Positions 1,055 through 28,214 of a stretch of 64,000 nucleotides of DNA are shown piece by piece. Position numbers and translations under genes: made by a program. The notes beneath the pieces are model-generated. The model was not told the origin of the DNA. It did no database searches and was given only the letters and a program-made list of their open reading frames with translations. The stretch comes from an uncultured Acidimicrobiia bacterium (GTDB lineage Bacteria; Actinomycetota; Acidimicrobiia; Spongiisociales; UBA5794): positions 234,994-298,993 of the forward strand of contig CAVPHV010000017.1 in assembly GCA_963704825.1 (NCBI GenBank), given 5' to 3'. How positions within the stretch are numbered: position 1 is the stretch's first letter; each line of letters starts with the position of its first letter.

Positions 1055-3418
1055 TCAGCGCAGGGCGGCGCCGAAGTGGTCGCCACCGCCGGCGGTACCG
1101 GGAATGCCGGACGAGTTCTGATGCCACGTCTGATCGCGGGCGGGCGTGAGCCCGGACCCCGATCCGAAGATGACCTGGACGACTCCGGTGTCGGCTGCAC
1201 CTGAGATGCTCTCGAACGGCACCCCGACGACGAGGTCCATGAACCCGCCACCGTTGTAGTCCCCGATGGTCACCGCGAACCCGAAGTTGTCTCCGCTTTC
1301 ACCGGTACCAGAGATGCCGGACGAGTCTTGATGCCACAGCCGGTTGCCCTCAACGGTGAGGCCGGAGGTTGCGCCCAGGATGACATTGACGGCGCCGTTG
1401 GTTCCTCGGTCCCGGGGTACCCCGACGGCGAGGTCGGCGTTGTGGTCCCCGTTGAAGTCCCCCGTTGCCAGTGCTGCGCCGAAGTTGTCGTTTGCCTTGG
1501 CGGCCCCAACGATGTTGGCGGTCTTCTGCTTCCACATCTGGTTCCCCGCGGCCGCCAACCCCGATCCTGCGCCGTAGAGGACGTTGACGGCGCCGGTGTT
1601 GGTGACCCCGGCGATGTCCTCGAGTGGCACTCCGACGGCGAGGTCATCGCGATCGTCAGCATCGAAGTCGCCGGCGGCAAGGGCGGAACCGAAGTGATCG
1701 TTTGCCTGGCCGGAGCCCAGGATGTTGGCCTTGTTCTGGTGCCACAGTTGATTGCCGGTGGCGCGCAGCCCGCCACCGGTCCCGTAGATCACGTTGACGG
1801 CGCCCATGTTGGCGACGGACTTGATGTCCTCGAACGGCACCCCGACGGCGAGGTCGTCGCGGTTGTTGTCGTCGAAGTCTCCCGAGGTCAGCGCCGAACC
1901 AAAGGCATCTCCGGCATTGCCCACCCCGGTGATGTCGCTGCGATCCTGGGTCCACAGTTGGTTGCGAGCGGCACCCAGTCCGCTTCCCGATCCGTACAGG
2001 ACGTTCACCGCACCGGCGTCGGCTGCATTGAGGTCTTCACCAGGGACCCCGATGGCGAGGTCATCGAAGCTGTCGCCGTCGAAGTCGCCCGAAACCAATG
2101 CCGCTCCAAATTGGTCACCCGGTTGCATGGCGCCTTGGACATCCGGGCTGTCCTGGGTCCACTGTTGGTCACCTGCCGCGCTCAGGCCGTTGGCGGTCCC
2201 GTACAGCACGTTGACCTCACCGCGTTCGCTGTTGTTGCCCGGCGCGCCGATGGCGACGTCGCTGAAGCCGTCGCCATCGAAGTCACCGCAGGCCACCGCC
2301 GCTCCAAACCGGTCACCTGCGCCGGGGCCACCGGCAACTCCGGTCGATCCTTGATGCCACAGCTGGTTTCCCTGGGAGCCAAGACCGTCGGCCGACCCGT
2401 AGATCACGTTGACGACTCCGGCGTCGGGCTGGCCCGCCTCGTTGTCGTCGGGTGCGCCGATGGCGACATCCGAGATCCCATCGCCGTTGATGTCGCAGGC
2501 CAGCTCTGGGCGGGGGGCGTGGGCGAGCATCACGATCTCCTGGCCGTCCGAGAACAGCGTCTGTGGTGCGCCGGCGCCATCACGTTGGACGGTGGTGCCG
2601 GATCGCCCCTCGTAGCCTTCACCGGCGTACCTCACATAGAAGAGCGTGGTGCTGTCGGTGTCCCACACCGGCGATTCCAGCTGGTGGTTGGACGAGTCGC
2701 GGACGGTGACCGTCCCGCCGTCGGCGTCCTCCTCGACCACCTGCCACCCGCCGCCGATGACGACGTAGGCGATCTTGCGGCCGTCGGGTGACCACGCCGG
2801 TTGTGCCACGTTGCCGGCTGCCAGCTGATACGAGCCGGTGCCGTCGAGGTTGGTGACGTAGATGCCGTCGTGGCGTTCGTAGGCCAGGCGCGACCCGGAG
2901 GGGTCCCACGTCGGGTTGATGCCGCTGCGCGTCCCGGGGATGGTCTTCTGTTGCGTTCCGTCTGCCCTCATCCGCATGATGACGCAGCAACTGTTGGCGT
3001 CCATGTTGCCCTCGGTATTGCGGGAGAAGGCAATCCAGTTGCCGTTGGCAGACCAGGCAGGGTCGAAGTCGCCGAGTTCAGGGTTGGTCAGCTGTTGGAG
3101 TCCGCTGCCGTCGACATTGACGACGAAGATGGCCCAGCGACCGTCGGTCCCGTCGGTGATGGGGCCTGAGTAGGCGATTCTGGTGCCGTCGGGGGAGTAC
3201 GCCGGGCGGCTGATGATCGGCCTGCTGAGGGGGGTTCGGTCGTCGAAGCCGGCACCATTGGTGATCTTCAGTTCGTAGTAGAAGCCGGAGCCTCCTTGGC
3301 TGCCTTCCTCGACGGCCAGGAAGGCGAAGTCGTCGTCGGCGCTGTCGGCGGCGGCAGGCACCGCGGTGGCAACGACGGCGAGAACCACCACTGCGATCAA
3401 CGGTGTCAGCCTGCTCAT
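1055..3418 (-). CDS. Secreted protein: TolB-like (PD40) beta-propeller plus seven FG-GAP/integrin-alpha repeats
   Basis: 787 aa; signal peptide; repeats PAYSPDG, PAWSANG, PTWDPSG, PAWSPDG, PVWD; seven 'DxxxDxA(I/V)G(A/V)P' Ca-binding repeats; ATGA overlap with upstream gene at 3415-3418. Confidence 0.9.
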   Translation of the reverse strand: MSRLTPLIAVVVLAVVATAVPAAADSADDDFAFLAVEEGSQGGSGFYYELKITNGAGFDDRTPLSRPIISRPAYSPDGTRIAYSGPITDGTDGRWAIFVVNVDGSGLQQLTNPELGDFDPAWSANGNWIAFSRNTEGNMDANSCCVIMRMRADGTQQKTIPGTRSGINPTWDPSGSRLAYERHDGIYVTNLDGTGSYQLAAGNVAQPAWSPDGRKIAYVVIGGGWQVVEEDADGGTVTVRDSSNHQLESPVWDTDSTTLFYVRYAGEGYEGRSGTTVQRDGAGAPQTLFSDGQEIVMLAHAPRPELACDINGDGISDVAIGAPDDNEAGQPDAGVVNVIYGSADGLGSQGNQLWHQGSTGVAGGPGAGDRFGAAVACGDFDGDGFSDVAIGAPGNNSERGEVNVLYGTANGLSAAGDQQWTQDSPDVQGAMQPGDQFGAALVSGDFDGDSFDDLAIGVPGEDLNAADAGAVNVLYGSGSGLGAARNQLWTQDRSDITGVGNAGDAFGSALTSGDFDDNNRDDLAVGVPFEDIKSVANMGAVNVIYGTGGGLRATGNQLWHQNKANILGSGQANDHFGSALAAGDFDADDRDDLAVGVPLEDIAGVTNTGAVNVLYGAGSGLAAAGNQMWKQKTANIVGAAKANDNFGAALATGDFNGDHNADLAVGVPRDRGTNGAVNVILGATSGLTVEGNRLWHQDSSGISGTGESGDNFGFAVTIGDYNGGGFMDLVVGVPFESISGAADTGVVQVIFGSGSGLTPARDQTWHQNSSGIPGTAGGGDHFGAALR

Positions 3419-3888
3419 TGGATCCCCGGCGGGTAGGCGGATGTGATCTTGATCGCGGCCAGCAACTGGCCGGCGCGCCGCGCTGCTTCCTCCCGGTTGG
3501 CGTAGCTGCCGATGACGATGTACAGGCAGAACGCCCGGCCGTTCTCCGTGAAGAAGTCCTGATACCCGGCTTGGTTGGGGATCCAGCGCTGGAGCCGATT
3601 GGTGCCGAAGCGGTCGGGGTCGATGCGACTGGGCAGAGTGCCGGGGGAGAACAGCGCCGAGTTGACCGCTTCATCGCCGTACTCGAGCAGGGAAATGAAG
3701 ACGTCGTTTGGTCCCATCACCTCGACGGCGCGGCTGCCGAAGTCGCCCCGCGCCTCGGGGAGGGGGAACGTGGCGGCGTGCAGTACCGGCTTGGACACGT
3801 CCTCAGGCTCACGGGGCAGGTGCCTGGTGATCCTCACCTCCCAGCCGACCGGAGTGTCGGCGCGCAGGCCATGGGCTTCGACCCTCAT
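3415..3888 (-). CDS. Hypothetical protein (157 aa) in the mau-like operon
   Basis: Start MRVEAHGL at 3888 overlaps the upstream stop (ATGA); its stop overlaps the next start; the longer track ORF (to 4368) is a shadow extension. Confidence 0.75.
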   Translation of the reverse strand: MRVEAHGLRADTPVGWEVRITRHLPREPEDVSKPVLHAATFPLPEARGDFGSRAVEVMGPNDVFISLLEYGDEAVNSALFSPGTLPSRIDPDRFGTNRLQRWIPNQAGYQDFFTENGRAFCLYIVIGSYANREEAARRAGQLLAAIKITSAYPPGIQ

Positions 3889-4574
3889 GCGGCCACCGCG
3901 GCGAGCAATGCGGCGGTGCCGGCAACAGCACAGGATGCCGCCAGCACGTTGTTCATGGGTTGGGCGAACGCCTCGACCCTGCGGTGGAGGCGCTGCAGCC
4001 CCGAGGCGGTCGTGACCCGCCGAGTCGAGAGCAGGGGCAGCGCTCGAGCCAGCCCAAAGGCGATCCCGATGATGAGTCCGCCCTGCCATGAGAAGGTGAG
4101 GAATTCGATGAGGAACATGAGGTAGATGGCCGCGGTCGGAACGATGGTGGCCCAGCCGAGGCCGAGTTGGTAACCGAAGCCGAAGCCGACGACCCAGCCC
4201 CGATAGGTGTCGAGCCAGTTTTCGTTGACCTGGCGGTGGACGGTTGGCAGAGGAATACGGATCCAGCCCATCTCGGCGGCGGCAACGATGAGGGCGAGAA
4301 CGCCAATCACGATCGCAACAGTTGCGGTGCCGGGCCGGACGGACGCGGGGATCAGACTGCCGAGCCACCCAAGGGTGATCCCGACGGTTGCGCCACCGGC
4401 GATGGAGCCGGCGAAATAGAACGCCGTCGTCGTCGCCCAGTTTCTTTCACGTCCCTGCTCACCGAGCGGGGTGATGCTGGCCAGCATCGACTCTCCTCAC
4501 GGCGACCAACTGGAGCGGATCGCGGCTGCGACGGCGATCACGACTCCGGCGACAATGATTCCGACGCTGGTCAT
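3885..4574 (-). CDS. MauF/DsbD-CcdA-like membrane protein with in-frame UGA at codon 26 (probable selenocysteine), 229 aa
   Basis: ATG 4574 overlaps the upstream stop (ATGA) and reads MTSVGIIVAGVVIAVAAAIRSSWSP-TGA-GESMLASITPLGE in frame with track ORF 3885..4487; UGA aligns with the Cys of the MauF-type WSPCG motif; multi-TM body. Confidence 0.75.
4459..4488 (-). promoter_or_regulatory. Candidate bacterial SECIS region after the in-frame UGA
   Basis: mRNA after UGA: GGAGAGUC-GAUGCU(GGCC)AGCAUC, then UCACC(CCGCUC)GGUGA; palindrome GATGCTGGCCAGCATC at 4473-4488 and second stem at 4459-4474. Folded by eye only. Confidence 0.45.
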
Positions 4575-5302
4575 TGCTCTTCGTCTTCCTGGTCCTGGTC
4601 CGGATAGAGGCTGGGGTGACCGGGGTAGATGCCGGCAGCCAGCAACTCTCGGTCGACGACATCCTCACGATCGGCGTCGGCCCGGGCCTTGCGGCGCTTG
4701 CGGGTCTTGGTGTCGTCGAGTGCCTCGCCCATGAGACGCAACAGCTGATCCCAGGTGCTGGCTGAGCCTTCGCCGGCGATCGATCCGTTCGTTCCATCGA
4801 CGAGTACGAAGTATGGGGAGCCGGGCACCTGGTAGTCGTTCCAGGCTTGATCGGACATGACCACGGGGTAGTCACCCGACGCCAGCTTGGCGATACGTGA
4901 CGGACTCTCCTCGTTCTCACCCTTGGTGAGCACGATGAGGCGGGTGGTGCCGAGCCCATTGGGACCCTTGTCGAACGTCTCCCAAAACTCGGCGCAGCCG
5001 AGACATCCGCTGGAGAGGAAGGCCAGGAGCGTCTTCTGCTTGGCTCCGAGCACGCGGATCCCGATGCCGTCACCCTCCGGCCCGGTACCCGAGATGTCGT
5101 GGGCCTGGATCACTTCGCCCCGCGGCGTTGCCACCGACGGGGCGAAGTTGAGGTCCGGCGTGCTCTGGTCGTGATCGTGTTCGAGGCCCGCCCCGAGACT
5201 GTCGAGTTGGCGGAGGATCTCGGCGTGGCTGCGCAGCAGGCTGGCGACGAGAAGGCCGAGCAGGAGGATCACGGCGGCCTCGGCGATGATGAGGGCGGTC
5301 AT
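4571..5302 (-). CDS. MauD-like membrane-anchored thioredoxin-fold protein
   Basis: 243 aa from MTALIIAEAAVILLLGLL; N-terminal TM; 'FLSSGCLGC' CxxC; 'YQVPGSPYFVLVDG' cis-Pro loop; ATGA-coupled on both sides. Confidence 0.8.
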   Translation of the reverse strand: MTALIIAEAAVILLLGLLVASLLRSHAEILRQLDSLGAGLEHDHDQSTPDLNFAPSVATPRGEVIQAHDISGTGPEGDGIGIRVLGAKQKTLLAFLSSGCLGCAEFWETFDKGPNGLGTTRLIVLTKGENEESPSRIAKLASGDYPVVMSDQAWNDYQVPGSPYFVLVDGTNGSIAGEGSASTWDQLLRLMGEALDDTKTRKRRKARADADREDVVDRELLAAGIYPGHPSLYPDQDQEDEEQ

Positions 5303-5919
5303 GTGCAGTCTCCCGCCAAGCAGGGCGCGGTCTGCTGGCCGGTCTGGTTGTCGATCCGCAGCGAGGTGCCACAGTCGTCGAACAACTGGTACGGCGGAAC
5401 ACAGGTCACCACCCGGCAGGCGACGGGGCCGCTGCACCCGATCTCCGTGTGGCATTGGCCGTACCGGAAGTAGTTGCAGCACACCCGCCGACGGTCGCAG
5501 GTCGTCTCGTTGCAGCGGCATTGGCAGGAGATGCACGATGGGTTACAGAAGCGACCGTTCTCGCACCCGTTGGTGCAGATGCACTGGGGGTGACAGTCGA
5601 TGTAGTAGCGGGCCCTGGGGTTGCCGTTCCCATCGCAGCAGTAGGTCGAACTGTCGGCTCGCCACCAGCCGCCGACGAACATCCCCGGTGGGCAGCGGTT
5701 GATGCCGCGGTTTGTGGTGCAGCAGAAGATCGTGTAGCCATTCGAGCACTCGGAGTACGGACCGCAGACGGCGGCATATGCCGTCATCGGACGCAAGATG
5801 AAGTCGAGCGGAGCCGTCAGCAGAGCCGAGCCGACGACGGCGACTCTGGCCAGGAAGGAGCGGCGGCTGTGTTCTCCGCCGAGGGCTCGGGCGGTACGTT
5901 CGGCAAGGCGGCGGCTCAT
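5299..5919 (-). CDS. Tat-exported Cys-rich protein, distantly MauA (methylamine dehydrogenase light chain)-like
   Basis: 206 aa; Tat motif 'SRRSFL'; about 26 Cys; 'NRCPPGMFVGGWWRADSSTYC...RYYIDC' resembles MauA 'NCPPGTKLATASWVASC...IAYRDC'. Confidence 0.75.
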   Translation of the reverse strand: MSRRLAERTARALGGEHSRRSFLARVAVVGSALLTAPLDFILRPMTAYAAVCGPYSECSNGYTIFCCTTNRGINRCPPGMFVGGWWRADSSTYCCDGNGNPRARYYIDCHPQCICTNGCENGRFCNPSCISCQCRCNETTCDRRRVCCNYFRYGQCHTEIGCSGPVACRVVTCVPPYQLFDDCGTSLRIDNQTGQQTAPCLAGDCT

Positions 5920-6437
5920 GTTTCGGCCCTCACTGGGATGACGGTGGGTACGACGTTGAGGATCAGATAGGCAAACCAGGTGCCCATCGCAACGAAGGCG
6001 ACCAGAACCAGGCCGGCTGGGGGATCGCCGGCGACGGCATCGAGGATGCCGGTCGCAGGCGCGGCGACGGCACCGAGCGCAACTGCTGCGGCGGCGAGGT
6101 TGAGGATGAGGTGCGCCCACGTCGGCGGCGTGTCGTCACGCCCGAAGCATCCACAGGAAGCGACGACGCCACCCTTGGCGAGGGCATACCCCACAAAGCC
6201 GGCGAATCCGAGGTACACGATGGCAACGAGCAATGCGCTGACGCTGCCACCGAAGAGCAGGGCGTACGTGCCGATTGTGATCTCGCCGAGCGCCATGAGC
6301 CGCACCAGCAGGGGAGATCCGGGTAAGGAAACAGAGCGAAGGGCTCGCGCCGTCTCGTCGGGACGGGCGAGCTTTGGTGCCCCCGCCACAACAAGGAGGA
6401 GGGAGGCGATGTAGAGCGGTCCAGCCATCGTCTGCAT
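5916..6437 (-). CDS. MauE/DoxX family membrane protein
   Basis: 173 aa from MQTMAG (or 6428 MAGPLY); 'AGAPKL', TM helices, 'ASCGCFG' and 'HLILN' MauE signature. Confidence 0.85.
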   Translation of the reverse strand: MQTMAGPLYIASLLLVVAGAPKLARPDETARALRSVSLPGSPLLVRLMALGEITIGTYALLFGGSVSALLVAIVYLGFAGFVGYALAKGGVVASCGCFGRDDTPPTWAHLILNLAAAAVALGAVAAPATGILDAVAGDPPAGLVLVAFVAMGTWFAYLILNVVPTVIPVRAET

Positions 6438-6448
6438 CGGTGGCCGGG

Positions 6449-6476
6449 ATAGTGGCATCTCAAATCGAGATGTCAA
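6449..6476 (-). promoter_or_regulatory. Sigma70-type promoter of the mau-like operon with an internal palindromic operator
   Basis: Minus strand TTGACA (6476-6471)-16 nt-CACTAT (6454-6449); inverted repeat CATCTC-N5-GAGATG at 6456-6472. Confidence 0.6.
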
Positions 6477-6494: not shown

Positions 6495-6716
6495 TCAGCG
6501 ATAGAAGATGGCTGAGATGATGGTGGCGGCCCCCGCAAGTGCGATCAGGAGTGCGATGAATCGGATCAGGAAACTGGTCGAGGCCATCAGACCTCCCGTG
6601 GATCGGGAGAACCGGGCGGGCCAGTGTGCGGCGAGTCGATCGACCAAGGCGAGCGAGTTCGATGCGAGCGCCGTTCCGATCAGAAGGAGTGCCACGCCGA
6701 AGACGATCAGGCCCAT
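6495..6716 (-). CDS. Small membrane protein (73 aa)
   Basis: Two hydrophobic segments; AAGGAG RBS upstream; fills an otherwise empty gap. Confidence 0.6.
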   Translation of the reverse strand: MGLIVFGVALLLIGTALASNSLALVDRLAAHWPARFSRSTGGLMASTSFLIRFIALLIALAGAATIISAIFYR

Positions 6717-6829
6717 GTTGCTCCTTGTCTGTCCTCTTCACGATACGGGTGATGACTACCGGCCAACAGAGCATTCTGGACGGTTGTCACGTGGCGAGAC
6801 CGGGTTTCGGCAGTGGGTACTATGCGTTG

Positions 6830-7243
6830 ATGTCCGACCAACCCTCGGTTCTCTTCCTCTGCACCCACAATGCCGGCCGTTCGCAGATGGCGGCCGGCTG
6901 GCTGCGGTCGCTGTCCGGAGGGAAGGTCGGTGTCTACTCCGCTGGATCGAGTCCGGGGGATGCGGTGAATCCGGTTGCCGTCGCCGCCATGGCTGAGGTT
7001 GGGATCGACATCGCCGCGGCTCAACCCCAGCAGTGGACCGACGACATGGTCCGGGTCGCCGACGTCATCGTGTCGATGGGCTGCGGTGATACCTGCCCGG
7101 TCTTTCCGGGCAAGCGGTACCTCGATTGGGAGCTCGACGATCCCCACGGTGCCGGCATCGAGGCGGTACGTCCGATCCGCGATGAGATCGAGGTTCGCAT
7201 TCGCGGGCTGCTGGCCGAGCTGGGAGCTGATGCCGTCGACTGA
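6830..7243 (+). CDS. arsC: Arsenate reductase ArsC / low-molecular-weight phosphatase family
   Basis: 137 aa from MSDQPSVLFL; CX5R loop 'CTHNAGRS', 'MGCGDTCP', 'DWELDDP'. Confidence 0.85.
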   Translation: MSDQPSVLFLCTHNAGRSQMAAGWLRSLSGGKVGVYSAGSSPGDAVNPVAVAAMAEVGIDIAAAQPQQWTDDMVRVADVIVSMGCGDTCPVFPGKRYLDWELDDPHGAGIEAVRPIRDEIEVRIRGLLAELGADAVD

Positions 7244-7280
7244 GCGGCACGTTTCGATCCGCGCGGCACCACCTGTCGCC

Positions 7281-7952
7281 TCAAGTTTCGTGTTCCAGGA
7301 TCTGATCCGTCACTGCCGTGAGGTCTGATCCGATGATGTCGGGCTCGGGGAACAGCGGATTGACGACCATGCCCGGCCTCGTGACGTAGGCGCCGGCGCA
7401 GCCCGCCCACATCGCTCCGGCGATGTCCCAGTCGTGAGCGGCGACCATGCGCATCGCGGCGGTGGTCACGCCGAGGCGGTCGGCGGCCATTCGGTACACG
7501 GCGGCGGCGGGCTTGAACCGGCCGGTCGGCCCCACGGACATGATCTCGTCGAAGCAGCCTGCGATGCCCGCATTGGCCAGCTGGGTCTCCGCAGCGTCCT
7601 GGGGCGAGTTGGTCAGCGCCACGATGCGCAGCCCGGCGTCGTTGAGACGCTGCAGGCTGGGGACAACATCGGGATGTGGCGGCAGAGCGGCCATGGCGCC
7701 TGCGACTGCGGCTCCATCGGCCGCGGAGACGGTGACGTCGCGTTGGTCGGCGACCATACCGAGCGAGGCGGCGCCCACGGCAACGAAGTCGTGGTAGTCA
7801 CCGATGATGGTGAGGGTCAGGGCATTGCGCAGCACGAGGCCGAACCACTGCCGGCGCACCGCAGCATCGCCGAAGATGCGCTCGAAATGGGGGTCGAGGG
7901 CTCTGAGGTCGAGCAGGGTTTCGTTGACGTCGAAGACAAGAACGCGAGCCAC
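7281..7952 (-). CDS. Haloacid dehalogenase type II (HAD family)
   Basis: GTG start, 'VFDVNETLLD', 'LTNS', 'FKP', 'MVAAHDWDIAGA'. Confidence 0.9.
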   Translation of the reverse strand: MARVLVFDVNETLLDLRALDPHFERIFGDAAVRRQWFGLVLRNALTLTIIGDYHDFVAVGAASLGMVADQRDVTVSAADGAAVAGAMAALPPHPDVVPSLQRLNDAGLRIVALTNSPQDAAETQLANAGIAGCFDEIMSVGPTGRFKPAAAVYRMAADRLGVTTAAMRMVAAHDWDIAGAMWAGCAGAYVTRPGMVVNPLFPEPDIIGSDLTAVTDQILEHET

Positions 7953-8047
7953 GCCACCTCCCGATCGGGCCCAAACCAAGCTAGCGCCTCGGGCGCCACT
8001 GTGATCGGCGGGCTTCTGCGGGCCGGCGCGCGGTACCCATTGACGAT

Positions 8048-8081
8048 TGCTAAGGTTCACTATTGCGATTGACTTGCAATA
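8048..8081 (+). promoter_or_regulatory. Extended -10 promoter with a Nur/Fur-family operator upstream of cbiM
   Basis: TGcTAAGGT (8048-8056); TTGCGA-N5-TTGCAA (8063-8079) inside palindrome TATTGC...GCAATA (8061-8081), abutting RBS AGGAG. Confidence 0.65.
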
Positions 8082-8090
8082 GGAGATGAT

Positions 8091-8771
8091 GTGCACATTC
8101 CGGACGGGTTCATCAACCCCGGTGTCTCCGCCGCCGCCGGCGTGGTGGCGGCCGGTGGCTTTGGCGTTGCCGTGCGTCGGGCTCGGGCCTACCTCACGGA
8201 GCGGCTTGTCCCGTTGGCGGCACTGGTCGCCGCATTTGTGTTTGCGGCCCAGATGATCAACTTTCCCGTTCTTCCCGGCATGAGCGGCCATCTCATCGGA
8301 GGAGTGCTCGCCGCCGTGCTGGTTGGCCCGGCCGCCGGCTACATCGTGATGAGCATCGTCCTGATCGTCCAGGCGCTCGTCTTCGCCGACGGCGGCCTCT
8401 CTGCCCTTGGGCTCAACATCGTGAACATGGGCCTGGTTGGAGCGGTTGGTGGCTACTACGTGTTCCGCGCCCTGATGCGGGCGACCGGAAATCGTCGCGG
8501 CCGTGTCCCGATGGTCGCCGGATTTGCCGCCTTCGTCTCGGTGCCGATGGCGGCAGTCGCCTTCGCCGTCGAGTTCGCTCTCGGCGGTACCGCCGAGAGC
8601 CTGTCGATGGGCGCCATCCTCTGGGCACTGCTCACAACCCACACCCTGATCGGGATCGGCGAGGGCCTCATCACGGCTTTGGTGCTTGGTGCGGTGATGT
8701 CCGCTCGACCCGATCTCGTGTACGGCTCGCCGAGCTTCTCCGGGCGCCGGGCCGAGGAGTCGGTCCGATGA
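8091..8771 (+). CDS. cbiM: ECF Ni/Co transporter substrate-binding component CbiM/NikM
   Basis: N-terminal MHIPDG metal-binding motif; 'QMINFP', 'SGHLIGG', 'ALGLNIVNM'. Confidence 0.93.
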   Translation: MHIPDGFINPGVSAAAGVVAAGGFGVAVRRARAYLTERLVPLAALVAAFVFAAQMINFPVLPGMSGHLIGGVLAAVLVGPAAGYIVMSIVLIVQALVFADGGLSALGLNIVNMGLVGAVGGYYVFRALMRATGNRRGRVPMVAGFAAFVSVPMAAVAFAVEFALGGTAESLSMGAILWALLTTHTLIGIGEGLITALVLGAVMSARPDLVYGSPSFSGRRAEESVR

Positions 8772-9100
8772 GTTCCGGGGGACGGCGGCGCAACGTGGCA
8801 CTGTTCGTCGGGGCCTTGGCGCTGGTTCTGGTGACTGCCGTTGGGCTCTCGCAGATTGCGTCGGATCAACCCGATGGGCTCGAGTACGTCGCCGACCAGG
8901 AAGGCTTCGCCGAGTCGGCGGATGAGCATGTCCTGGCCGAGACGCCGCTGGCCGACTACGGCGGGAATCTCGACGGAGCCGATTCGACCAACGTCGCGCT
9001 CGCCGGCCTCGTCGGGGTACTCGTCACCTTGGGCCTCGGGTTTGGAGTCTTCTGGCTCGTCCGAGCGGGTGGCACGCCACCCAAATCGGCCGGGAGTTGA
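8768..9100 (+). CDS. PDGLE-domain protein (NikN/CbiN-like)
   Basis: 'PDGLE' motif between two TM helices; overlaps the cbiM stop. Confidence 0.9.
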   Translation: MSSGGRRRNVALFVGALALVLVTAVGLSQIASDQPDGLEYVADQEGFAESADEHVLAETPLADYGGNLDGADSTNVALAGLVGVLVTLGLGFGVFWLVRAGGTPPKSAGS

Positions 9101-9101
9101 G

Positions 9102-9866
9102 GTGGCGGGCGGTCACGTCCACGCGCTCTACCGTCACGGTCACTCCGTTGTGCATCGGATGGCGCCGCAGATCAAGGTTCTCGCGGCATTTGGGTTCGTG
9201 CTCGCCGTGGTCGTCACCCCACGCGAGGCTTTCTGGGCGTTTGGCCTGTACCTCGTGGCGCTGATACTCCTCATGGCCATCACGCGACTCCCGATGCGCT
9301 TTGTCCTGCGCCGGATGGTGGTCGAGATCCCGTTCTTGGTTGTTGCCGTCATGCTCCCGTTGTTTGGATCGGGGGATCGGATCGACGTTCTAGGCGTGTC
9401 GCTGTCCGAACAAGGGCTCTGGGACATGTGGAACCTCTTGGCCAAGGCCACCCTGGGCCTGCTCACCGCCATCGTTCTCGGGGCCACCACCCAGGTACCG
9501 GACTTGCTCAAGGGGCTCGACGCCCTCCACGTTCCCGCGGTCGTCACCGCCATCATCTCGTTCATGGTTCGCTACGTCGATGTCATCCTCGGCGAGTTCT
9601 CCCGAATGCAGGTGGCGATGGCGTCGCGGGGCCACGAGGTCCGCTCGGTGATGGGGTGGCGTCCGTACGCCAAGACGTTTGGCGCAATGTTCGTGCGCAC
9701 CTACGAACGCGGCGAACGGGTCTACCTGGCGATGGCGTCGCGGGGCTACTCGGGGACCATGCCGGCGTCGATGCGAGTTCCGGCTCCGGCTCGGCAGTGG
9801 GTCGTCGGGCTGGGACTGGTCGCGGCCGCCTGGCTGGTGGCGTACGCCGCATGGGCACAGCAATGA
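9102..9866 (+). CDS. cbiQ: ECF transporter T component CbiQ/NikQ
   Basis: GTG start MAGGHVH; 'SFMVRY', 'MASRG', 'RTYERGERVYLAMASRGY'. Confidence 0.92.
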   Translation: MAGGHVHALYRHGHSVVHRMAPQIKVLAAFGFVLAVVVTPREAFWAFGLYLVALILLMAITRLPMRFVLRRMVVEIPFLVVAVMLPLFGSGDRIDVLGVSLSEQGLWDMWNLLAKATLGLLTAIVLGATTQVPDLLKGLDALHVPAVVTAIISFMVRYVDVILGEFSRMQVAMASRGHEVRSVMGWRPYAKTFGAMFVRTYERGERVYLAMASRGYSGTMPASMRVPAPARQWVVGLGLVAAAWLVAYAAWAQQ

Positions 9867-10597
9867 CGGCGCCGGTGATCGCGGTGGACGGCCTCGACTT
9901 CGTGTACCCGGACGGTACTGCGGCGCTCGAGGGGATCTACCTCCACGTTCATCGCGGCGAGCGCATCGCTTTGCTGGGACCGAACGGAGCCGGCAAGACG
10001 ACGTTGGTGCTCCACCTCAACGGCATCCACATGCCTCAGCAGGGCACGATTGATGTTTCAGGGTTGCGGCTCGATGGAGACTCGGTGATGGAGATTCGGC
10101 GACGGGTCGGCATCGTCTTCCAGGATCCCGACGATCAATTGTTCATGACGACCGTCCGCGAGGACGTCGCGTTCGGCCCCCGCAACCTCGGACTCACGGG
10201 TGACGAGCTGAGCCGGCGGGTCGCTCTTGCCTTGGCCGCGGTCGAGGTGGACGATCTTGCCGATCGGCCGCCGTCGCACCTTTCATTCGGGCAGAAACGC
10301 CGGGTGGCCATCGCCGGAGTGCTCGCCATGGACCCCGAGATCATCATCCTCGACGAGCCGACCTCGAACCTCGATCCGGCAAGCCGACGGGAGCTGTCGG
10401 CGACCCTGCAGGGCCTCGATGTGACTCAGATGATCGTCACCCACGACCTGCTGTACGCGTTGGAACTGTGTGAACGTGCGGTGATCCTCGACCGGGGGGC
10501 CATCGTCGCCGACGGGCCAACCCGGGAGTTGCTCGCCGACACCGATCTGCTCGAGCGCCATCGGCTGGCCCTCCCCACCGGAGTGCGCCTCGCATGA
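9863..10597 (+). CDS. cbiO: ECF transporter ATPase CbiO/NikO
   Basis: Walker A GPNGAGKT, 'FQDPDDQLF', 'LSFGQKRR', 'LDEPT'. Confidence 0.93.
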   Translation: MTAPVIAVDGLDFVYPDGTAALEGIYLHVHRGERIALLGPNGAGKTTLVLHLNGIHMPQQGTIDVSGLRLDGDSVMEIRRRVGIVFQDPDDQLFMTTVREDVAFGPRNLGLTGDELSRRVALALAAVEVDDLADRPPSHLSFGQKRRVAIAGVLAMDPEIIILDEPTSNLDPASRRELSATLQGLDVTQMIVTHDLLYALELCERAVILDRGAIVADGPTRELLADTDLLERHRLALPTGVRLA

Positions 10598-10649
10598 CGT
10601 TCCGGCGTGGCTGAGGTACCAGAAAACGCGCTCGAGCCACGCCGGAACG
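10598..10649. repeat. REP-like palindromic element, family A copy 1 (inverted relative to other copies)
   Basis: 15-bp arms CGTTCCGGCGTGGCT/AGCCACGCCGGAACG; reverse complement matches the elements at 35275 and 41240. Confidence 0.85.
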
Positions 10650-10650
10650 G

Positions 10651-10998
10651 TCAGTCGCAGGGTCCGTCGCTCTGGGCGACCTCGAGGACTTTGCGCACCG
10701 ATCTTCCGGCGTCCAGCCAGCCCAGCGGCGACATCGTGGCAAGCATTGGGTGCGGCCTTGCCAGCCAATCGGCGATGGCGATGTCGTCGTGGTCGGTCTT
10801 GAGCGCTCCAACAACTTCTGCCACTTCGGGACGAATCCCGGCGGCGCCGAATTGGAACTCGAAATACGCCTCGGGGAGCCAGATGCTGGTAACGCGCAAC
10901 AAGTCGTGCCGCGCCAGCAACGACCGGCCGCGCAGATCCGCCTGGTTTGCGGCGGCGGATCTGGTCAGGAAAGGCCCAAGGAGCACGCGTTCTGTCAT
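10651..10998 (-). CDS. Hypothetical protein, possibly Rv2175c-like or Xre/MbcA-ParS antitoxin C-terminal domain
   Basis: 115 aa from MTERVLL; 'YFEFQF', 'IADWLARPHPMLATMSPLGWLDAG' resembles the MbcA/ParS C-terminal motif. Confidence 0.55.
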   Translation of the reverse strand: MTERVLLGPFLTRSAAANQADLRGRSLLARHDLLRVTSIWLPEAYFEFQFGAAGIRPEVAEVVGALKTDHDDIAIADWLARPHPMLATMSPLGWLDAGRSVRKVLEVAQSDGPCD

Positions 10999-11037
10999 CA
11001 CTACCCAACTACCGGGACCTGTCTGGTGCCGGTCCAT

Positions 11038-25988: not shown

Positions 25989-28214
25989 TCACCCCGGCCC
26001 CACCTCCACCGGAATGCCGTTCAGCACCGCGTTGCCCGACAAAGGGTCGATGTCGTCTCCAGCGAGGACATTGGAGTTCACTCCTGGGCGGCGGGAGGCC
26101 ACCGTCAGGTCGATGCCCGGGAGGTCGTGGCCCCAGCCGTGGGGGAGGCTGACGACGCCGGGCATGATGTCCGTGGTGATCTCGATCGGCGCGGCGACGG
26201 ATCCTGCGCCCGAGGTGACGCGGGCAGTATCTGATCCAGCCAGGCCGAGGCGCGTCGCGTCCACCGGATGGATCTGCAGCGTGCAGCGCTCCTGACCCTT
26301 GACGAGGACCTCGACGTTGTGCATCCACGAGTTGTTGGAGCGCAGGTGGCGGCGACCGACGAGCACCATGGCGCCGTTGCCCGGGGCGGCGGCGGCTTCG
26401 AGCCTGGCCAGGTCGGCGATGATGGCCTCAGGAGCCAGCTCGACCTGTCCCGACGGGGTTGCCAGCACCTCAGGGAGGCGAGGCTGGAGCGGTCCGAGGT
26501 CGATGCCGTGCGGGTGGCGGCGGAGTCGTTCGAGGTTGAGCCCATCGGAGTTGTGCCCATATCCATCGCCGTACGGCCCGACACGTACCAAGTAGTCGAG
26601 TATCCGTTCCGGGCCGCGGTCGCCCGCGGTGGCGGCGATGATCTCAGCAGCGTTCCGGCCGCTGATGGTGGAGGCCGGGTCGCCGACGCCGCGCCCGACC
26701 ATGGTGGCGAAGACCATGTCGTCGAACTGGTCGAGGTCGGCGTCGGGGCCCATCCCCGAGACGACGGCTGCCAACCGCAGCAAGGTACGCCATTCCGGCT
26801 CGGCACCTGGCTCGGCGGGGAGCACGGCTGGGGAGTAATTGGCAACGTTGTGGACGGCGAGGGCCCCAAAGGCGAAGTCGTAGTGAGGTCGGCGCAGCGC
26901 CGGCGGCGCCGGGAGAATCACATCGGCGTGACGGGTGGTTTCGTTGCGGTAGATGTCGACGCTGACCATGAAATCGAGTTGGCCGAGGGCGGCGTCGAGC
27001 CGCTCGCTGTGCGGGGTGGACAGGACCGGATTGCCCGCCACCGTGATCAGGGCACGGACCCTGCCGTCTCCCGGGGTCGTGATCTCATCGGCCAGGCCGG
27101 CGACCGGCAACTCGCCGCGCACCTCAGGATGACCCCCGGTCCGGCTCGTCCAGCGTCCGGTCGTCCAGCCGCGCTTGGGGCGGGGCTGTTCGTGGGCCGC
27201 CTTCGGAAACATCGCCCCACCGGGCCGATCGAGGTTGCCGGTCAGCGCGTTGAGGACATCGACCAACCAGGCGCCGAGCGTTCCGAATCGCACGGTGTGG
27301 GTGCCGATTCGGCCGTAGACGGCGGCGGTCTCGGCTGCGGAGAGTTCACGGGCGAGACGGCGAATGGTGGTGGCATCGATGCCGCAGATGGCAGCGACTC
27401 GCTCAGGCGGGAAGCCTTCGGTGGCGGCTCCAACGTCACCGACGCCGCGGAGGTGATCGGCGGCCGGTCCGAGTTCGACGAGGCCTTCGTCGAACAGCAC
27501 GTGCCCCATCGCAGCGAGCAGGTACACGTCGGTGCCGGGCTGGATGAATAGATGCTCGTCGGCGGCCTTGGCGGTCCGGCTGCGCCGGGGATCAACCACC
27601 ACGACCCGGCCCCCGCGCTCTCTGATCGCGTCGAGCCGTCCCGGCCAATCGGGCGCGGTGGCCAGGCTGCCGTTCGAGGCGCGCGGGTTGGCGCCGAGGA
27701 TGAGCAGGTAGTCGGTGCGGTCGATGTCGGGCACCGGAATGATGTCGGGGTGGCCGAACATCAGGCCGCACGAAACGTGCTTGGGCATCTGGTCGACGGT
27801 ACTGGCGCTGTAGAGGCTCCGGCTGCGCAGCGCCCGGATCAGCACCCGGTTGTAGAGCGGACCCGACATGGCGTGCACGTTGGGATTACCGAGATAGAGG
27901 GCGACGGCGTTGGGCCCGTGCGCGGTGATCACGGGAACCAGGTTGTCCGCAATGTGTGCGAAGGCTTCATCCCACGTCGCAGGCTCGAATTTGCCGTCGC
28001 GTTTGATCATCGGTTGCCGCACCCGGTCGGGGTCGGCGTCGAGCTGTTTCAGGGTCGAACCCTTTGGGCAGATGAACCCGCGGCTGAACACGTCGTCCCG
28101 GTCACCTCGGATCCGCACCACGGCGTCGTCGCGGACGGAGATCTCGAGCCCACAGGTGGCCTCGCAGAGTGGGCACGTTCGAAAGGCCAGTCGAGTGGTG
28201 TCGTCGGAGTTCAT
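25989..28214 (-). CDS. Molybdopterin-dependent oxidoreductase with a 4Fe-4S cluster
   Basis: 'CPLCEATCG...FICPKG', 'LILGANP', 'VVDPRR', C-terminal 'SNNSWMHN', 'HPVDA', 'LPHGWGH'. Confidence 0.92.
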   Translation of the reverse strand: MNSDDTTRLAFRTCPLCEATCGLEISVRDDAVVRIRGDRDDVFSRGFICPKGSTLKQLDADPDRVRQPMIKRDGKFEPATWDEAFAHIADNLVPVITAHGPNAVALYLGNPNVHAMSGPLYNRVLIRALRSRSLYSASTVDQMPKHVSCGLMFGHPDIIPVPDIDRTDYLLILGANPRASNGSLATAPDWPGRLDAIRERGGRVVVVDPRRSRTAKAADEHLFIQPGTDVYLLAAMGHVLFDEGLVELGPAADHLRGVGDVGAATEGFPPERVAAICGIDATTIRRLARELSAAETAAVYGRIGTHTVRFGTLGAWLVDVLNALTGNLDRPGGAMFPKAAHEQPRPKRGWTTGRWTSRTGGHPEVRGELPVAGLADEITTPGDGRVRALITVAGNPVLSTPHSERLDAALGQLDFMVSVDIYRNETTRHADVILPAPPALRRPHYDFAFGALAVHNVANYSPAVLPAEPGAEPEWRTLLRLAAVVSGMGPDADLDQFDDMVFATMVGRGVGDPASTISGRNAAEIIAATAGDRGPERILDYLVRVGPYGDGYGHNSDGLNLERLRRHPHGIDLGPLQPRLPEVLATPSGQVELAPEAIIADLARLEAAAAPGNGAMVLVGRRHLRSNNSWMHNVEVLVKGQERCTLQIHPVDATRLGLAGSDTARVTSGAGSVAAPIEITTDIMPGVVSLPHGWGHDLPGIDLTVASRRPGVNSNVLAGDDIDPLSGNAVLNGIPVEVGPG

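Follow-up and report, generated by a model that had tools for sequence, protein, structure and literature searches.

The 64,000-nucleotide stretch of contig CAVPHV010000017.1 analysed here, hereafter the window, comes from an uncultured bacterium of the class Acidimicrobiia and carries on its minus strand a run of overlapping genes, one of which is interrupted by an in-frame UGA that very probably encodes selenocysteine (Sec). This gene spans 3885..4574 (minus strand) and comprises 229 codons plus a stop codon; Sec would occupy codon 26 of a predicted membrane protein of about six transmembrane (TM) segments. The frame opens at ATG 4574-4572, which shares the tetranucleotide ATGA with the stop codon TGA 4573-4571 of an upstream thioredoxin (Trx)-like open reading frame (ORF) on the same strand, proceeds through MTSVGIIVAGVVIAVAAAIRSSWSP to TGA 4499-4497 and continues as GESMLASITPLGE... 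to the stop codon at 3887-3885. An initial annotation of this DNA had described both the overlap of ATG 4574 with the upstream stop codon, like all other junctions of the operon, and the in-frame TGA continuing into an ORF of 200 amino acids (aa). These descriptions proved exact: the ATGA overlap is found at 5/5 junctions of the window operon, and the continuation was confirmed by sequence and translation.

The UGA (U26; 4497..4499, minus strand) lies inside the invariant motif RSxWSP-U-GESML. The 25 codons on its 5' side form an upstream exon (4500..4574, minus strand) that encodes TM1 and RSSWSP, begins with the ATG overlapping the upstream stop codon and is missed by gene callers. Among 44 relatives, the entropy of this exon per codon position amounts to 0.97, 0.68 and 1.41, and its GC content at third codon positions to 0.84. 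Third-position variability is dominant and, by this signature, the exon is coding in the frame that contains the TGA. In the relatives, the start codon is located 23-31 codons 5' of the TGA and mostly overlaps the stop codon of the upstream gene. The combination of ATGA overlaps, coding signature and kept TGA is far beyond chance. The translation and the conserved readthrough in relatives bear out the proposed membrane protein of 229 aa and its WSPUG motif.

As had been anticipated, gene callers truncate this protein. In the public annotation of the source contig (ENA ERZ25039600 contig_21141, 289 kb), the gene is the shortened 200-aa ORF, which leaves an unexplained gap of 83 nt behind the upstream gene. 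The Met found four codons after the UGA is the first residue in 115 of the 120 nearest database proteins; the RefSeq protein of Pedococcus bigeumensis (WP_140740063.1, 198 aa) is also truncated and goes by the name 'sulfite exporter TauE/SafE family protein'. No match to TauE (PF01925) was obtained for the window protein and 20 relatives at E <= 1, and the 'TauE/SafE' name of the truncated relatives is a product of automated annotation. The error is systematic: TM1 and, with it, the only redox-active residue are missing from hundreds of public entries, RefSeq records of cultured strains among them, and the truncated entries bear a misleading 'sulfite exporter' name in addition.

Conservation of the UGA codon

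An in-frame TGA is present at the same site in 8/8 genomic relatives having upstream sequence, which are metagenome-assembled genomes (MAGs) of Acidimicrobiia, Gaiellaceae and Mycobacteriales sharing 40-94% identity with the window protein. Its flanks read RS[ST]WSP*G[ER]SML[AST]SI[TN]PLGE in these sequences, and Cys takes the place of the TGA in a few full-length database relatives, whose motif is RSTWSPCG[QL]SML. In 11 full-length forms as well as in wider alignments, the TGA aligns with the sole invariant Cys/Sec of the family; the other invariant features of the 11 forms are R20, W23, S24, P25, G27, S29-M30-L31, HRQVNExWL and GxGxQxGxG. A wider genome sample contains more than 532 relatives. 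When 80 loci from this sample were first combined with the earlier loci, the alignment column held TGA in 46 sequences and TGC/TGT in 42, and in a sister clade, which comprises at least 1,425 protein clusters, the codon is one for Cys (TGC/TGT). The TGA form is represented in total by at least 159 distinct sequences from several Actinomycetota classes with protein identity down to ~40%, and RSxWSP-U-GESMLxSIxPLGE is kept as protein on both sides of the UGA to about the same identity. The Sec-forms make up essentially a single clade, and the number of Sec/Cys transitions is about two. The initial annotation had placed the UGA at a conserved Cys with conserved flanks, an assignment with which the homolog alignment agrees: TGA and TGC/TGT share one column, and homologs with Cys at that very position do exist.

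The codon was also examined by scanning its nucleotide context in 185,579 species genomes with TGA, TAA, TAG and TGG all allowed at the position (TGGTCNCCNTRRGGNGARTCGATGCT). Among the matches listed, TGA occupies the position in 119/119, and no TAA, TAG or TGG was encountered. The real gene ends of the same loci are TGA in 107 cases, TAA in 10 and TAG in 7. The exact 26-nt Sec-form context also occurs in contigs binned as Acidobacteriota, Burkholderiales, Gammaproteobacteria, Boseongicola and Verrucomicrobiales (L189, L222, L225, L229 and L284), which points to mis-binning of actinobacterial contigs or else to horizontal transfer. A window-wide scan for other TGA-interrupted genes gave none that was convincing; a large molybdopterin-oxidoreductase-like ORF (25989-28214, minus strand; N-terminus ...FRTCPLCEATCGLE...) has no in-frame TGA.

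Hairpins and selenocysteine machinery

Two hairpins follow the UGA. H1 (GAUGCU-GGCC-AGCAUC; 4473..4488, minus strand) extends from +9 to +24 after the UGA and H2 (CCCGCUC-GGU-GAGCAGG; 4454..4470, minus strand) from +27 to +43; their family consensus is GAUGCU-N4-AGCAUC and CCCGCUC-GGN-GAGCGGG, respectively. All 6 bp of H1 are formed in 42/44 distinct Sec-forms versus 2/42 Cys-forms, and H1 is present in 117/118 of the matches listed from the context scan, its 3' half being outside the search pattern. For H2, at least 6 of 7 bp are formed in 39/44 Sec-forms versus 4/42 Cys-forms. Synonymous codon choice at three sites is fixed, or nearly so, in Sec-forms only. Ser at +7 is AGC in 44/44 Sec-forms, whereas Cys-forms use AGC (7), TCC (4) and TCG (2); Leu at +11 is CTC in 35/35, against CTG (11), CTC (7), TTG (2) and TTA (1); Arg at +14 is CGG in 33/35, against CGC (6), CGG (6), CGT (4) and CGA (2). 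A formal pair count finds 95.4% of the cells paired. Three pairs of H2 display compensatory double changes (CG/UA/UG, GC/UA and CG/UA), with 12 compensatory cells versus 3.1 expected, a count reached in 0/500 shuffles. H1 and the H2 core are also predicted independently by RNAalifold.

The consensus of the bacterial Sec insertion sequence (bSECIS) specifies a loop of 3-9 nt with a G within its first two positions, a stem of 4-16 bp, a distance of 16-37 nt from the UGA and a minimum free energy <= -7.5 kcal/mol (PMC13188914). H2 satisfies all four criteria in 42/44 Sec-forms, in the window with a GGU loop, a 33-nt spacing and -9.7 kcal/mol, and is the best bSECIS candidate; H1 violates the spacing (14 nt) and loop-G rules. 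On the comparative evidence, SelB and tRNA-Sec recode UGA 4499-4497 to selenocysteine, directed by a bSECIS within ~45 nt 3' of the UGA. H2 (4470-4454), whose GGN apical loop lies 33 nt from the UGA, would be the likely SelB site, preceded by the invariant H1 (4488-4473).

The hairpins have been lost in a Cys clade of Solirubrobacteraceae nested in the Sec clade (L023, L050 and L061), two members of which (L023 and L050) retain the Sec-type gene order; this clade is a useful internal control. Five members of the family carry CUCCCC-GGUC-GGGGAG in place of H2 at the same location. The MAG MFD01721.bin.2.199 possesses the Sec-type operon in two copies on two contigs (L017 and L027), in which H1 is weakened (4 and 5 of 6 pairs; AUG AUG for AUG CUG) and H2 adopts an alternative register; H1 of L017 additionally has UCC instead of UCG.

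The Sec machinery is found in several genomes that encode the TGA form. In Pedococcus bigeumensis (L085) and in the MAG L070, selB, selA, selC and selD are located 3-6 kb downstream of the gene. In the former, SelD scores 376.5 bits (cutoff 125), SelA 398.2 (cutoff 267.9) and SelB 241.5 (cutoff 242.25); tRNA-Sec reaches 79.5 bits there and 77.1 in L070. The nearest relatives of the window belong to the class Acidimicrobiia, as does the Microthrixaceae MAG L273, which carries the full set within ~1.2 kb of a TGA-form gene (tRNA-Sec 58.7 bits, SelD 356.6, SelA 449.4 and a SelB-like protein at 202, for an NCBIfam cutoff of 242). SelB scores below cutoff in Acidimicrobiia have also been reported in a preprint on Actinomarina (bioRxiv 10.64898/2026.04.03.716425). 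Since the SelB of L273 falls under the NCBIfam cutoff, the Sec trait of Acidimicrobiia may be overlooked by automated annotation. Sel genes or tRNA-Sec were detected near the gene at L178, L219, L238 and L276. SelA was found elsewhere in three more TGA-form assemblies (CAWASE01, JAOPVV01 and CAVSEK01) and in no Cys-form assembly by a genome scan that covered the class Actinomycetes and Dormibacterota only, no Acidimicrobiia. Beyond Pedococcus, L070 and the Microthrixaceae MAG, about nine further TGA-form assemblies contain SelA or tRNA-Sec. Absence of the machinery, which the initial annotation had linked to a nonsense mutation or a split gene, does not describe the TGA-form relatives, where it is present and often adjacent.

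Some further observations were made at these loci. The tRNA-Sec is nearly invariant across Actinomycetota and even in Dormibacterota (GGAGGCGT...CCTGGTGG...CTTCAAA...GGGTTCGATTCCCGTCCGCCTCC; sequences from the selA loci L090-L169 and from L273). SelB-like matches at L017 and L027 lie beside tRNA clusters, probably correspond to EF-Tu and were discarded. Sec-type FdhA genes (...NQARI-U-HS[AS]TVPGLG...) adjoin the sel clusters of Paractinoplanes toevensis (L124, 6094, minus strand) and Saccharopolyspora hattusasensis (L132, 5691, minus strand), both with an FdhA SECIS having a GGUCU loop.

On the strength of the conserved codon, its context, its pairing with Cys, the downstream hairpins and the neighbouring Sec machinery, we regard the product of 3885-4574 with high confidence as a genuine selenoprotein. 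Several points weigh against this assignment. Since neither sel genes nor tRNA-Sec were detected in the 64-kb window (ARAGORN, Rfam, motif regular expressions and tblastn with Escherichia coli Sel probes), which gave no tRNA and no Rfam match at all, nor sel genes or tRNA-Sec in the 10 kb of source contig past its left end, the Sec competence of the window organism is judged from its relatives. The invariance of H1 leaves no covariation, making this hairpin uninformative; the window element taken alone is of unremarkable stability (z = -1.2), and its H2 contains a C-A mismatch. SelB might bind either hairpin. Finally, the Fisher and contingency tests comparing Sec- and Cys-forms are not phylogenetically independent because the Sec-forms amount to roughly one clade with its two or so transitions.

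Operon partners, proposed function and alternative readings

The upstream partner, translationally coupled to the selenoprotein gene, encodes a membrane-anchored Trx-like protein with the motif CLGC (4571..5302, minus strand). This gene stands directly 5' of the selenoprotein gene in 45/45 Sec-type loci and its CxxC motif is conserved; the charge distribution weakly suggests that the protein may be tethered on the cytoplasmic side. Its profile matches are weak only (TIGR02661 MauD, E 3.6e-4, 20 bits for a cutoff of 188.6; Thioredoxin_2, E 0.24). The 'mauD-like' label given to it earlier holds for a CxxC Trx-like protein in the role of MauD and fails at the level of the family score. Further upstream lies a gene for a MauE-family membrane protein with a conserved CGCFG (5916..6476, minus strand; PF07291, 60.8 bits), for which the public call starts at 6437. 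The CGC is kept in 53/56 relatives, and the gene is found near the selenoprotein gene in 39/45 Sec-type loci.

Between these two partners, gene X (5299..5919, minus strand) encodes a protein with a twin-arginine translocation (Tat) signal (SRRSFLARV) and 26 Cys, which constitute 16% of the mature part; it gave no family match and is a candidate client of the system. Cys-rich relatives of X with a Tat signal recur in Sec-type and Cys-type operons alike and share beside the module the pattern GTAYA..CxC..CGSTCCxG[FY][ST]EFCC..CPPG..GGWW; as the screen for Cys-rich ORFs returned many out-of-frame false positives, only candidates combining a Tat signal with the shared Cys motif were kept. The segment with CPPG plus Trp resembles the light chain MauA of methylamine dehydrogenase (MADH), and X may represent a new family of Cys-rich, possibly cofactor-bearing, exported proteins.

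Translationally coupled on the downstream side is gene Y (3415..3888, minus strand), a conserved 157-aa orphan located directly 3' in 44/45 Sec-type loci. It has no family match and 54 homologs, all hypothetical; its AlphaFold2 (AF2) model has a predicted local distance difference test (pLDDT) score of 93.4, with no significant match in the PDB and weak MucB/PsbP-like similarity only. The last gene of the ATGA-coupled run encodes a 787-aa FG-GAP/PD40/Tricorn_N beta-propeller (1055..3418, minus strand). This gene is not universally conserved, being present in 8/45 Sec-type loci; by analogy, its product could partner X as the MauB propeller partners MauA. About half of the Cys-type loci contain the same four genes (MauE-like, Trx-like, carrier and Y) in a different order. 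Divergently oriented upstream of the window operon (~6626-11000; L170 3891-7736) are genes for an LMWPc (ArsC-like) phosphatase/reductase, a haloacid dehalogenase-like (HAD) hydrolase and a CbiM/PDGLE/CbiQ/ABC metal transporter of the energy-coupling factor (ECF) type.

The AF2 model of a Cys-form (pLDDT 91.9, predicted TM-score 0.88) is an all-helical membrane protein, with the Cys at the start of a short helix directly after TM1. Lys plus Arg counts amount to 4.0, 4.4 and 5.5 in loops 1, 3 and 5 and to 0.6 and 0.0 in loops 2 and 4, so that by charge counting and the positive-inside rule loops 1, 3 and 5 would be cytoplasmic and loops 2 and 4 outside. Because these counts place loops 1, 3 and 5 there, Sec26 and HRQVNExW are predicted on the cytoplasmic side. 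Relatives of the window protein match DsbD_2 (PF13386) at 23.8-26.6 bits for a cutoff of 24.9, the Pedococcus member being just above threshold, and one relative matches DsbD_TM (PF02683) at 19 bits (cutoff 27.1). These weak alignments cover residues 11-221, from TM1 to TM5 or TM6, and many truncated relatives have precomputed PF13386 matches. Profile searches against the PDB gave nothing significant. The protein would be at most a distant relative of the DsbD superfamily. The designation 'MauF-like' used in the initial annotation agrees with the operon context and finds no support in Pfam or NCBIfam, relatives scoring only at the DsbD_2 threshold; it holds as an operon analogy only. The related idea of a DsbD/CcdA-type carrier with a redox Cys retains the SPC/U site and the weak profiles, and is at odds with the single conserved redox residue.

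In the function that we envisage, Sec26 would sit at the end of TM1, with RSxWSP-U-G at the N-terminus of the short helix on the cytoplasmic face, and its selenol would form a transient selenenylsulfide with the CxxC of the Trx-like protein and/or the CGC of the MauE-family protein. The four-gene module (MauE-like, Trx-like, Sec/Cys carrier and Y) would thereby act as a membrane thiol/selenol redox relay, which probably helps to mature Cys-rich proteins exported by Tat, X among them. A relay is suggested because the CxxC Trx-like and CGC MauE-family partners are conserved, Cys-rich Tat proteins recur and weak DsbD matches exist; we give this function even chances. For the locus as a whole, a Sec-decoded membrane selenoprotein with such a proposed relay is very likely the best explanation. 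Against the relay stand the single conserved redox residue, a topology derived from charge counting alone, the lack of any Pfam or NCBIfam match for the window protein, and a Foldseek search of the PDB in which the best hit had E 0.27 and a TM-score <= 0.27, although this method is weak on helical bundles. If correct, the four genes and their Cys-rich Tat substrates would indicate an envelope redox pathway that has not been characterised before.

The main functional rival is that of a selenoprotein acting in transport or ligand binding, in which Sec26 and HRQVNExW would hold an anion or else a metal or metalloid (for example Ni/Co, Cu, Hg or selenium species). The public names of relatives ('UreH-like transmembrane domain', 'sulfite exporter TauE/SafE family') point that way, as do the single redox residue, the invariant His, Gln, Asn and Glu on one membrane face and the occurrence of transporters among known membrane selenoproteins (MerT-like, YeeE/YedE and SO_0444). 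In the window, moreover, a CbiMNQO transporter and the LMWPc/ArsC-like gene lie near the operon; these neighbours, recorded here for the window, are on the opposite strand. Weighed against the conserved CxxC Trx-like and CGC MauE-family partners, the Cys-rich Tat substrates in the operon and the missing TauE (PF01925) match, this role appears unlikely while deserving consideration.

Other explanations dispense with Sec altogether. The gene could be split: translation would stop at the UGA after a TM peptide of 25 residues, and a restart at the AUG 10 nt downstream would yield a 200-aa protein. Gene callers choose the AUG after the UGA everywhere, this Met is invariant, and in the window a GGAG precedes it by 5 nt. 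Cys-forms, which require no restart, show the same invariance of the Met, however, and the third base of GGNGAG varies, leaving no conserved Shine-Dalgarno sequence. A plain stop codon should sometimes be TAA or TAG, as opposed to the exclusive TGA among the matches listed. The split would also remove the only invariant Cys of the family while neighbouring invariant residues persist, and it leaves unexplained the hairpins specific to Sec-forms and the adjacency of sel genes. We consider a split gene very improbable.

Readthrough of the UGA by a near-cognate tRNA inserting Trp, Cys or Arg, or reassignment of the codon, appears scarcely tenable. UGA is the leakiest stop codon, and sequence data alone leave some room for readthrough of this kind. 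On the other side, UGA has not been reassigned, because it ends 107/124 genes of the same loci and is their dominant true stop; no TGG (Trp) variant occurs at the position among the matches listed, the hairpin fits the bSECIS model and dedicated Sec machinery adjoins the gene in several genomes. A pseudogene, by nonsense mutation or sequencing error in the contig, has nothing in its favour except the presence of a stop codon and is already refuted by the same TGA in at least 159 distinct sequences from several Actinomycetota classes with flanks under purifying selection.

Comparison with known systems

A catalogue from 2026, covering 119 families of prokaryotic selenoproteins, contains no PF13386, MauF-like or WSPUG family, and its nearest entries (TsoB, MerT, YeeE and SO_0444) are different families. 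No model for the present family exists in NCBIfam release 20, and nothing on it was found in BSepDB, in deep-Sep including its supplements, or by a search for PF13386 with 'selenoprotein'. The suspicion that it falls outside the established selenoprotein families is upheld in the catalogues and the NCBIfam release checked. It is best viewed as a selenoprotein family not described before, decoded by the usual Sec mechanism of bacteria, widespread in Actinomycetota and absent from these catalogues. With it, the bacterial selenoproteome gains a well-supported family of integral-membrane proteins. To our knowledge, few selenoproteins have been discussed in Actinomycetota beyond FdhA and SelD. Cultured hosts of the TGA form belong to Pedococcus, Kineococcus, Janibacter, Phycicoccus, Knoellia and Actinospongiicola, making direct tests feasible. 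Complete genomes encoding the TGA form include those of Kineococcus sp. DHX-1 (NZ_CP170445.1) and Actinospongiicola halichondriae Hal317 (NZ_CP171622.1) as well as OY970233.1 and OZ244213.1, while OY969793.1, OY970387.1 and OY970186.1 are complete genomes with the Cys form; the MAGs CAWGCJ01 and CAYXMJ01 encode proteins 93-94% identical to that of the window.

The class K07090 covers TauE/SafE, the name given to the present family in RefSeq. In one sentence, the Actinomarina preprint mentions deep-Sep candidates matching K07090 (bioRxiv 10.64898/2026.04.03.716425). Like the family described here, these are uncharacterised selenoprotein candidates from the class Acidimicrobiia; the preprint gives no sequence, motif or context for these possible relatives. 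The TsoB rhodanese/DsbD fusion (NF045694, UxxxxU), the MerT-like (PF02411) and YeeE/YedE (PF04143) proteins and SO_0444 (NF033936) are likewise integral-membrane proteins with Cys-form homologs. They differ by their domain models and Sec motifs from the present family, which is characterised by WSPUG, a single Sec and a distribution mainly in Actinomycetota; the window protein is none of them because no NCBIfam model matched.

The DsbD and CcdA proteins (PF02683, PF13386) have a pair of conserved redox Cys, of which each half of the membrane domain holds one, and SPC is a motif typical of them. The present family shares with them a polytopic architecture of ~6 TM segments, a redox residue following Ser-Pro at the end of TM1, weak profile matches over nearly the whole protein and a CxxC thioredoxin-fold partner. 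It departs from them by having one invariant Cys/Sec instead of two, by its own invariant motifs (HRQVNExWL and GxGxQxGxG) and by the use of Sec in half of the family; moreover, the window protein has no Pfam match and the model no match among solved structures. A bolder possibility, which we advance as tentative and rather doubtful, is that the protein founds an actinobacterial system spanning the phylum (MauE-like, tethered Trx-like, Sec carrier and Y), in which reducing equivalents are moved by a single selenol acting in trans with thiols of the partners, unlike the intramolecular two-Cys relay of DsbD/CcdA, to mature extremely Cys-rich Tat proteins, possibly cofactor-bearing as MauA. Because sel genes adjoin the gene in several lineages, this system might be a principal reason for retention of the Sec trait in these Actinomycetota.

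The window operon resembles the mau cluster by its genuine MauE-family protein (PF07291), its membrane-anchored CxxC Trx-like protein in the role of MauD, a third membrane protein in the position of MauF and a small Cys-rich Tat-signal protein in the style of MauA. Unlike in that cluster, the Trx-like protein scores 20 bits where MauD would require 188.6, X and the beta-propeller match no model of the MADH light or heavy chain, and no mauG-like gene was noticed in the window operon. No mau cluster was detected in a search of annotated plasmids.

At the RNA level, the conserved UGA with its hairpin context offers a clean natural set of bSECIS elements for Actinomycetota, to be compared with the SECIS of actinobacterial fdhA. 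Both are stem-loops of the coding region just 3' of the UGA with a G-rich apical loop, and the GGUC loop of the five members that replaced H2 resembles the GGUCU loop of fdhA. The fdhA hairpin begins 11-12 nt 3' of the UGA and its loop occupies +19 to +23, whereas the present family forms both H1, whose loop lies at +15 to +18, and H2, whose loop lies at +34 to +36 and is mostly of the 3-nt form GGN.

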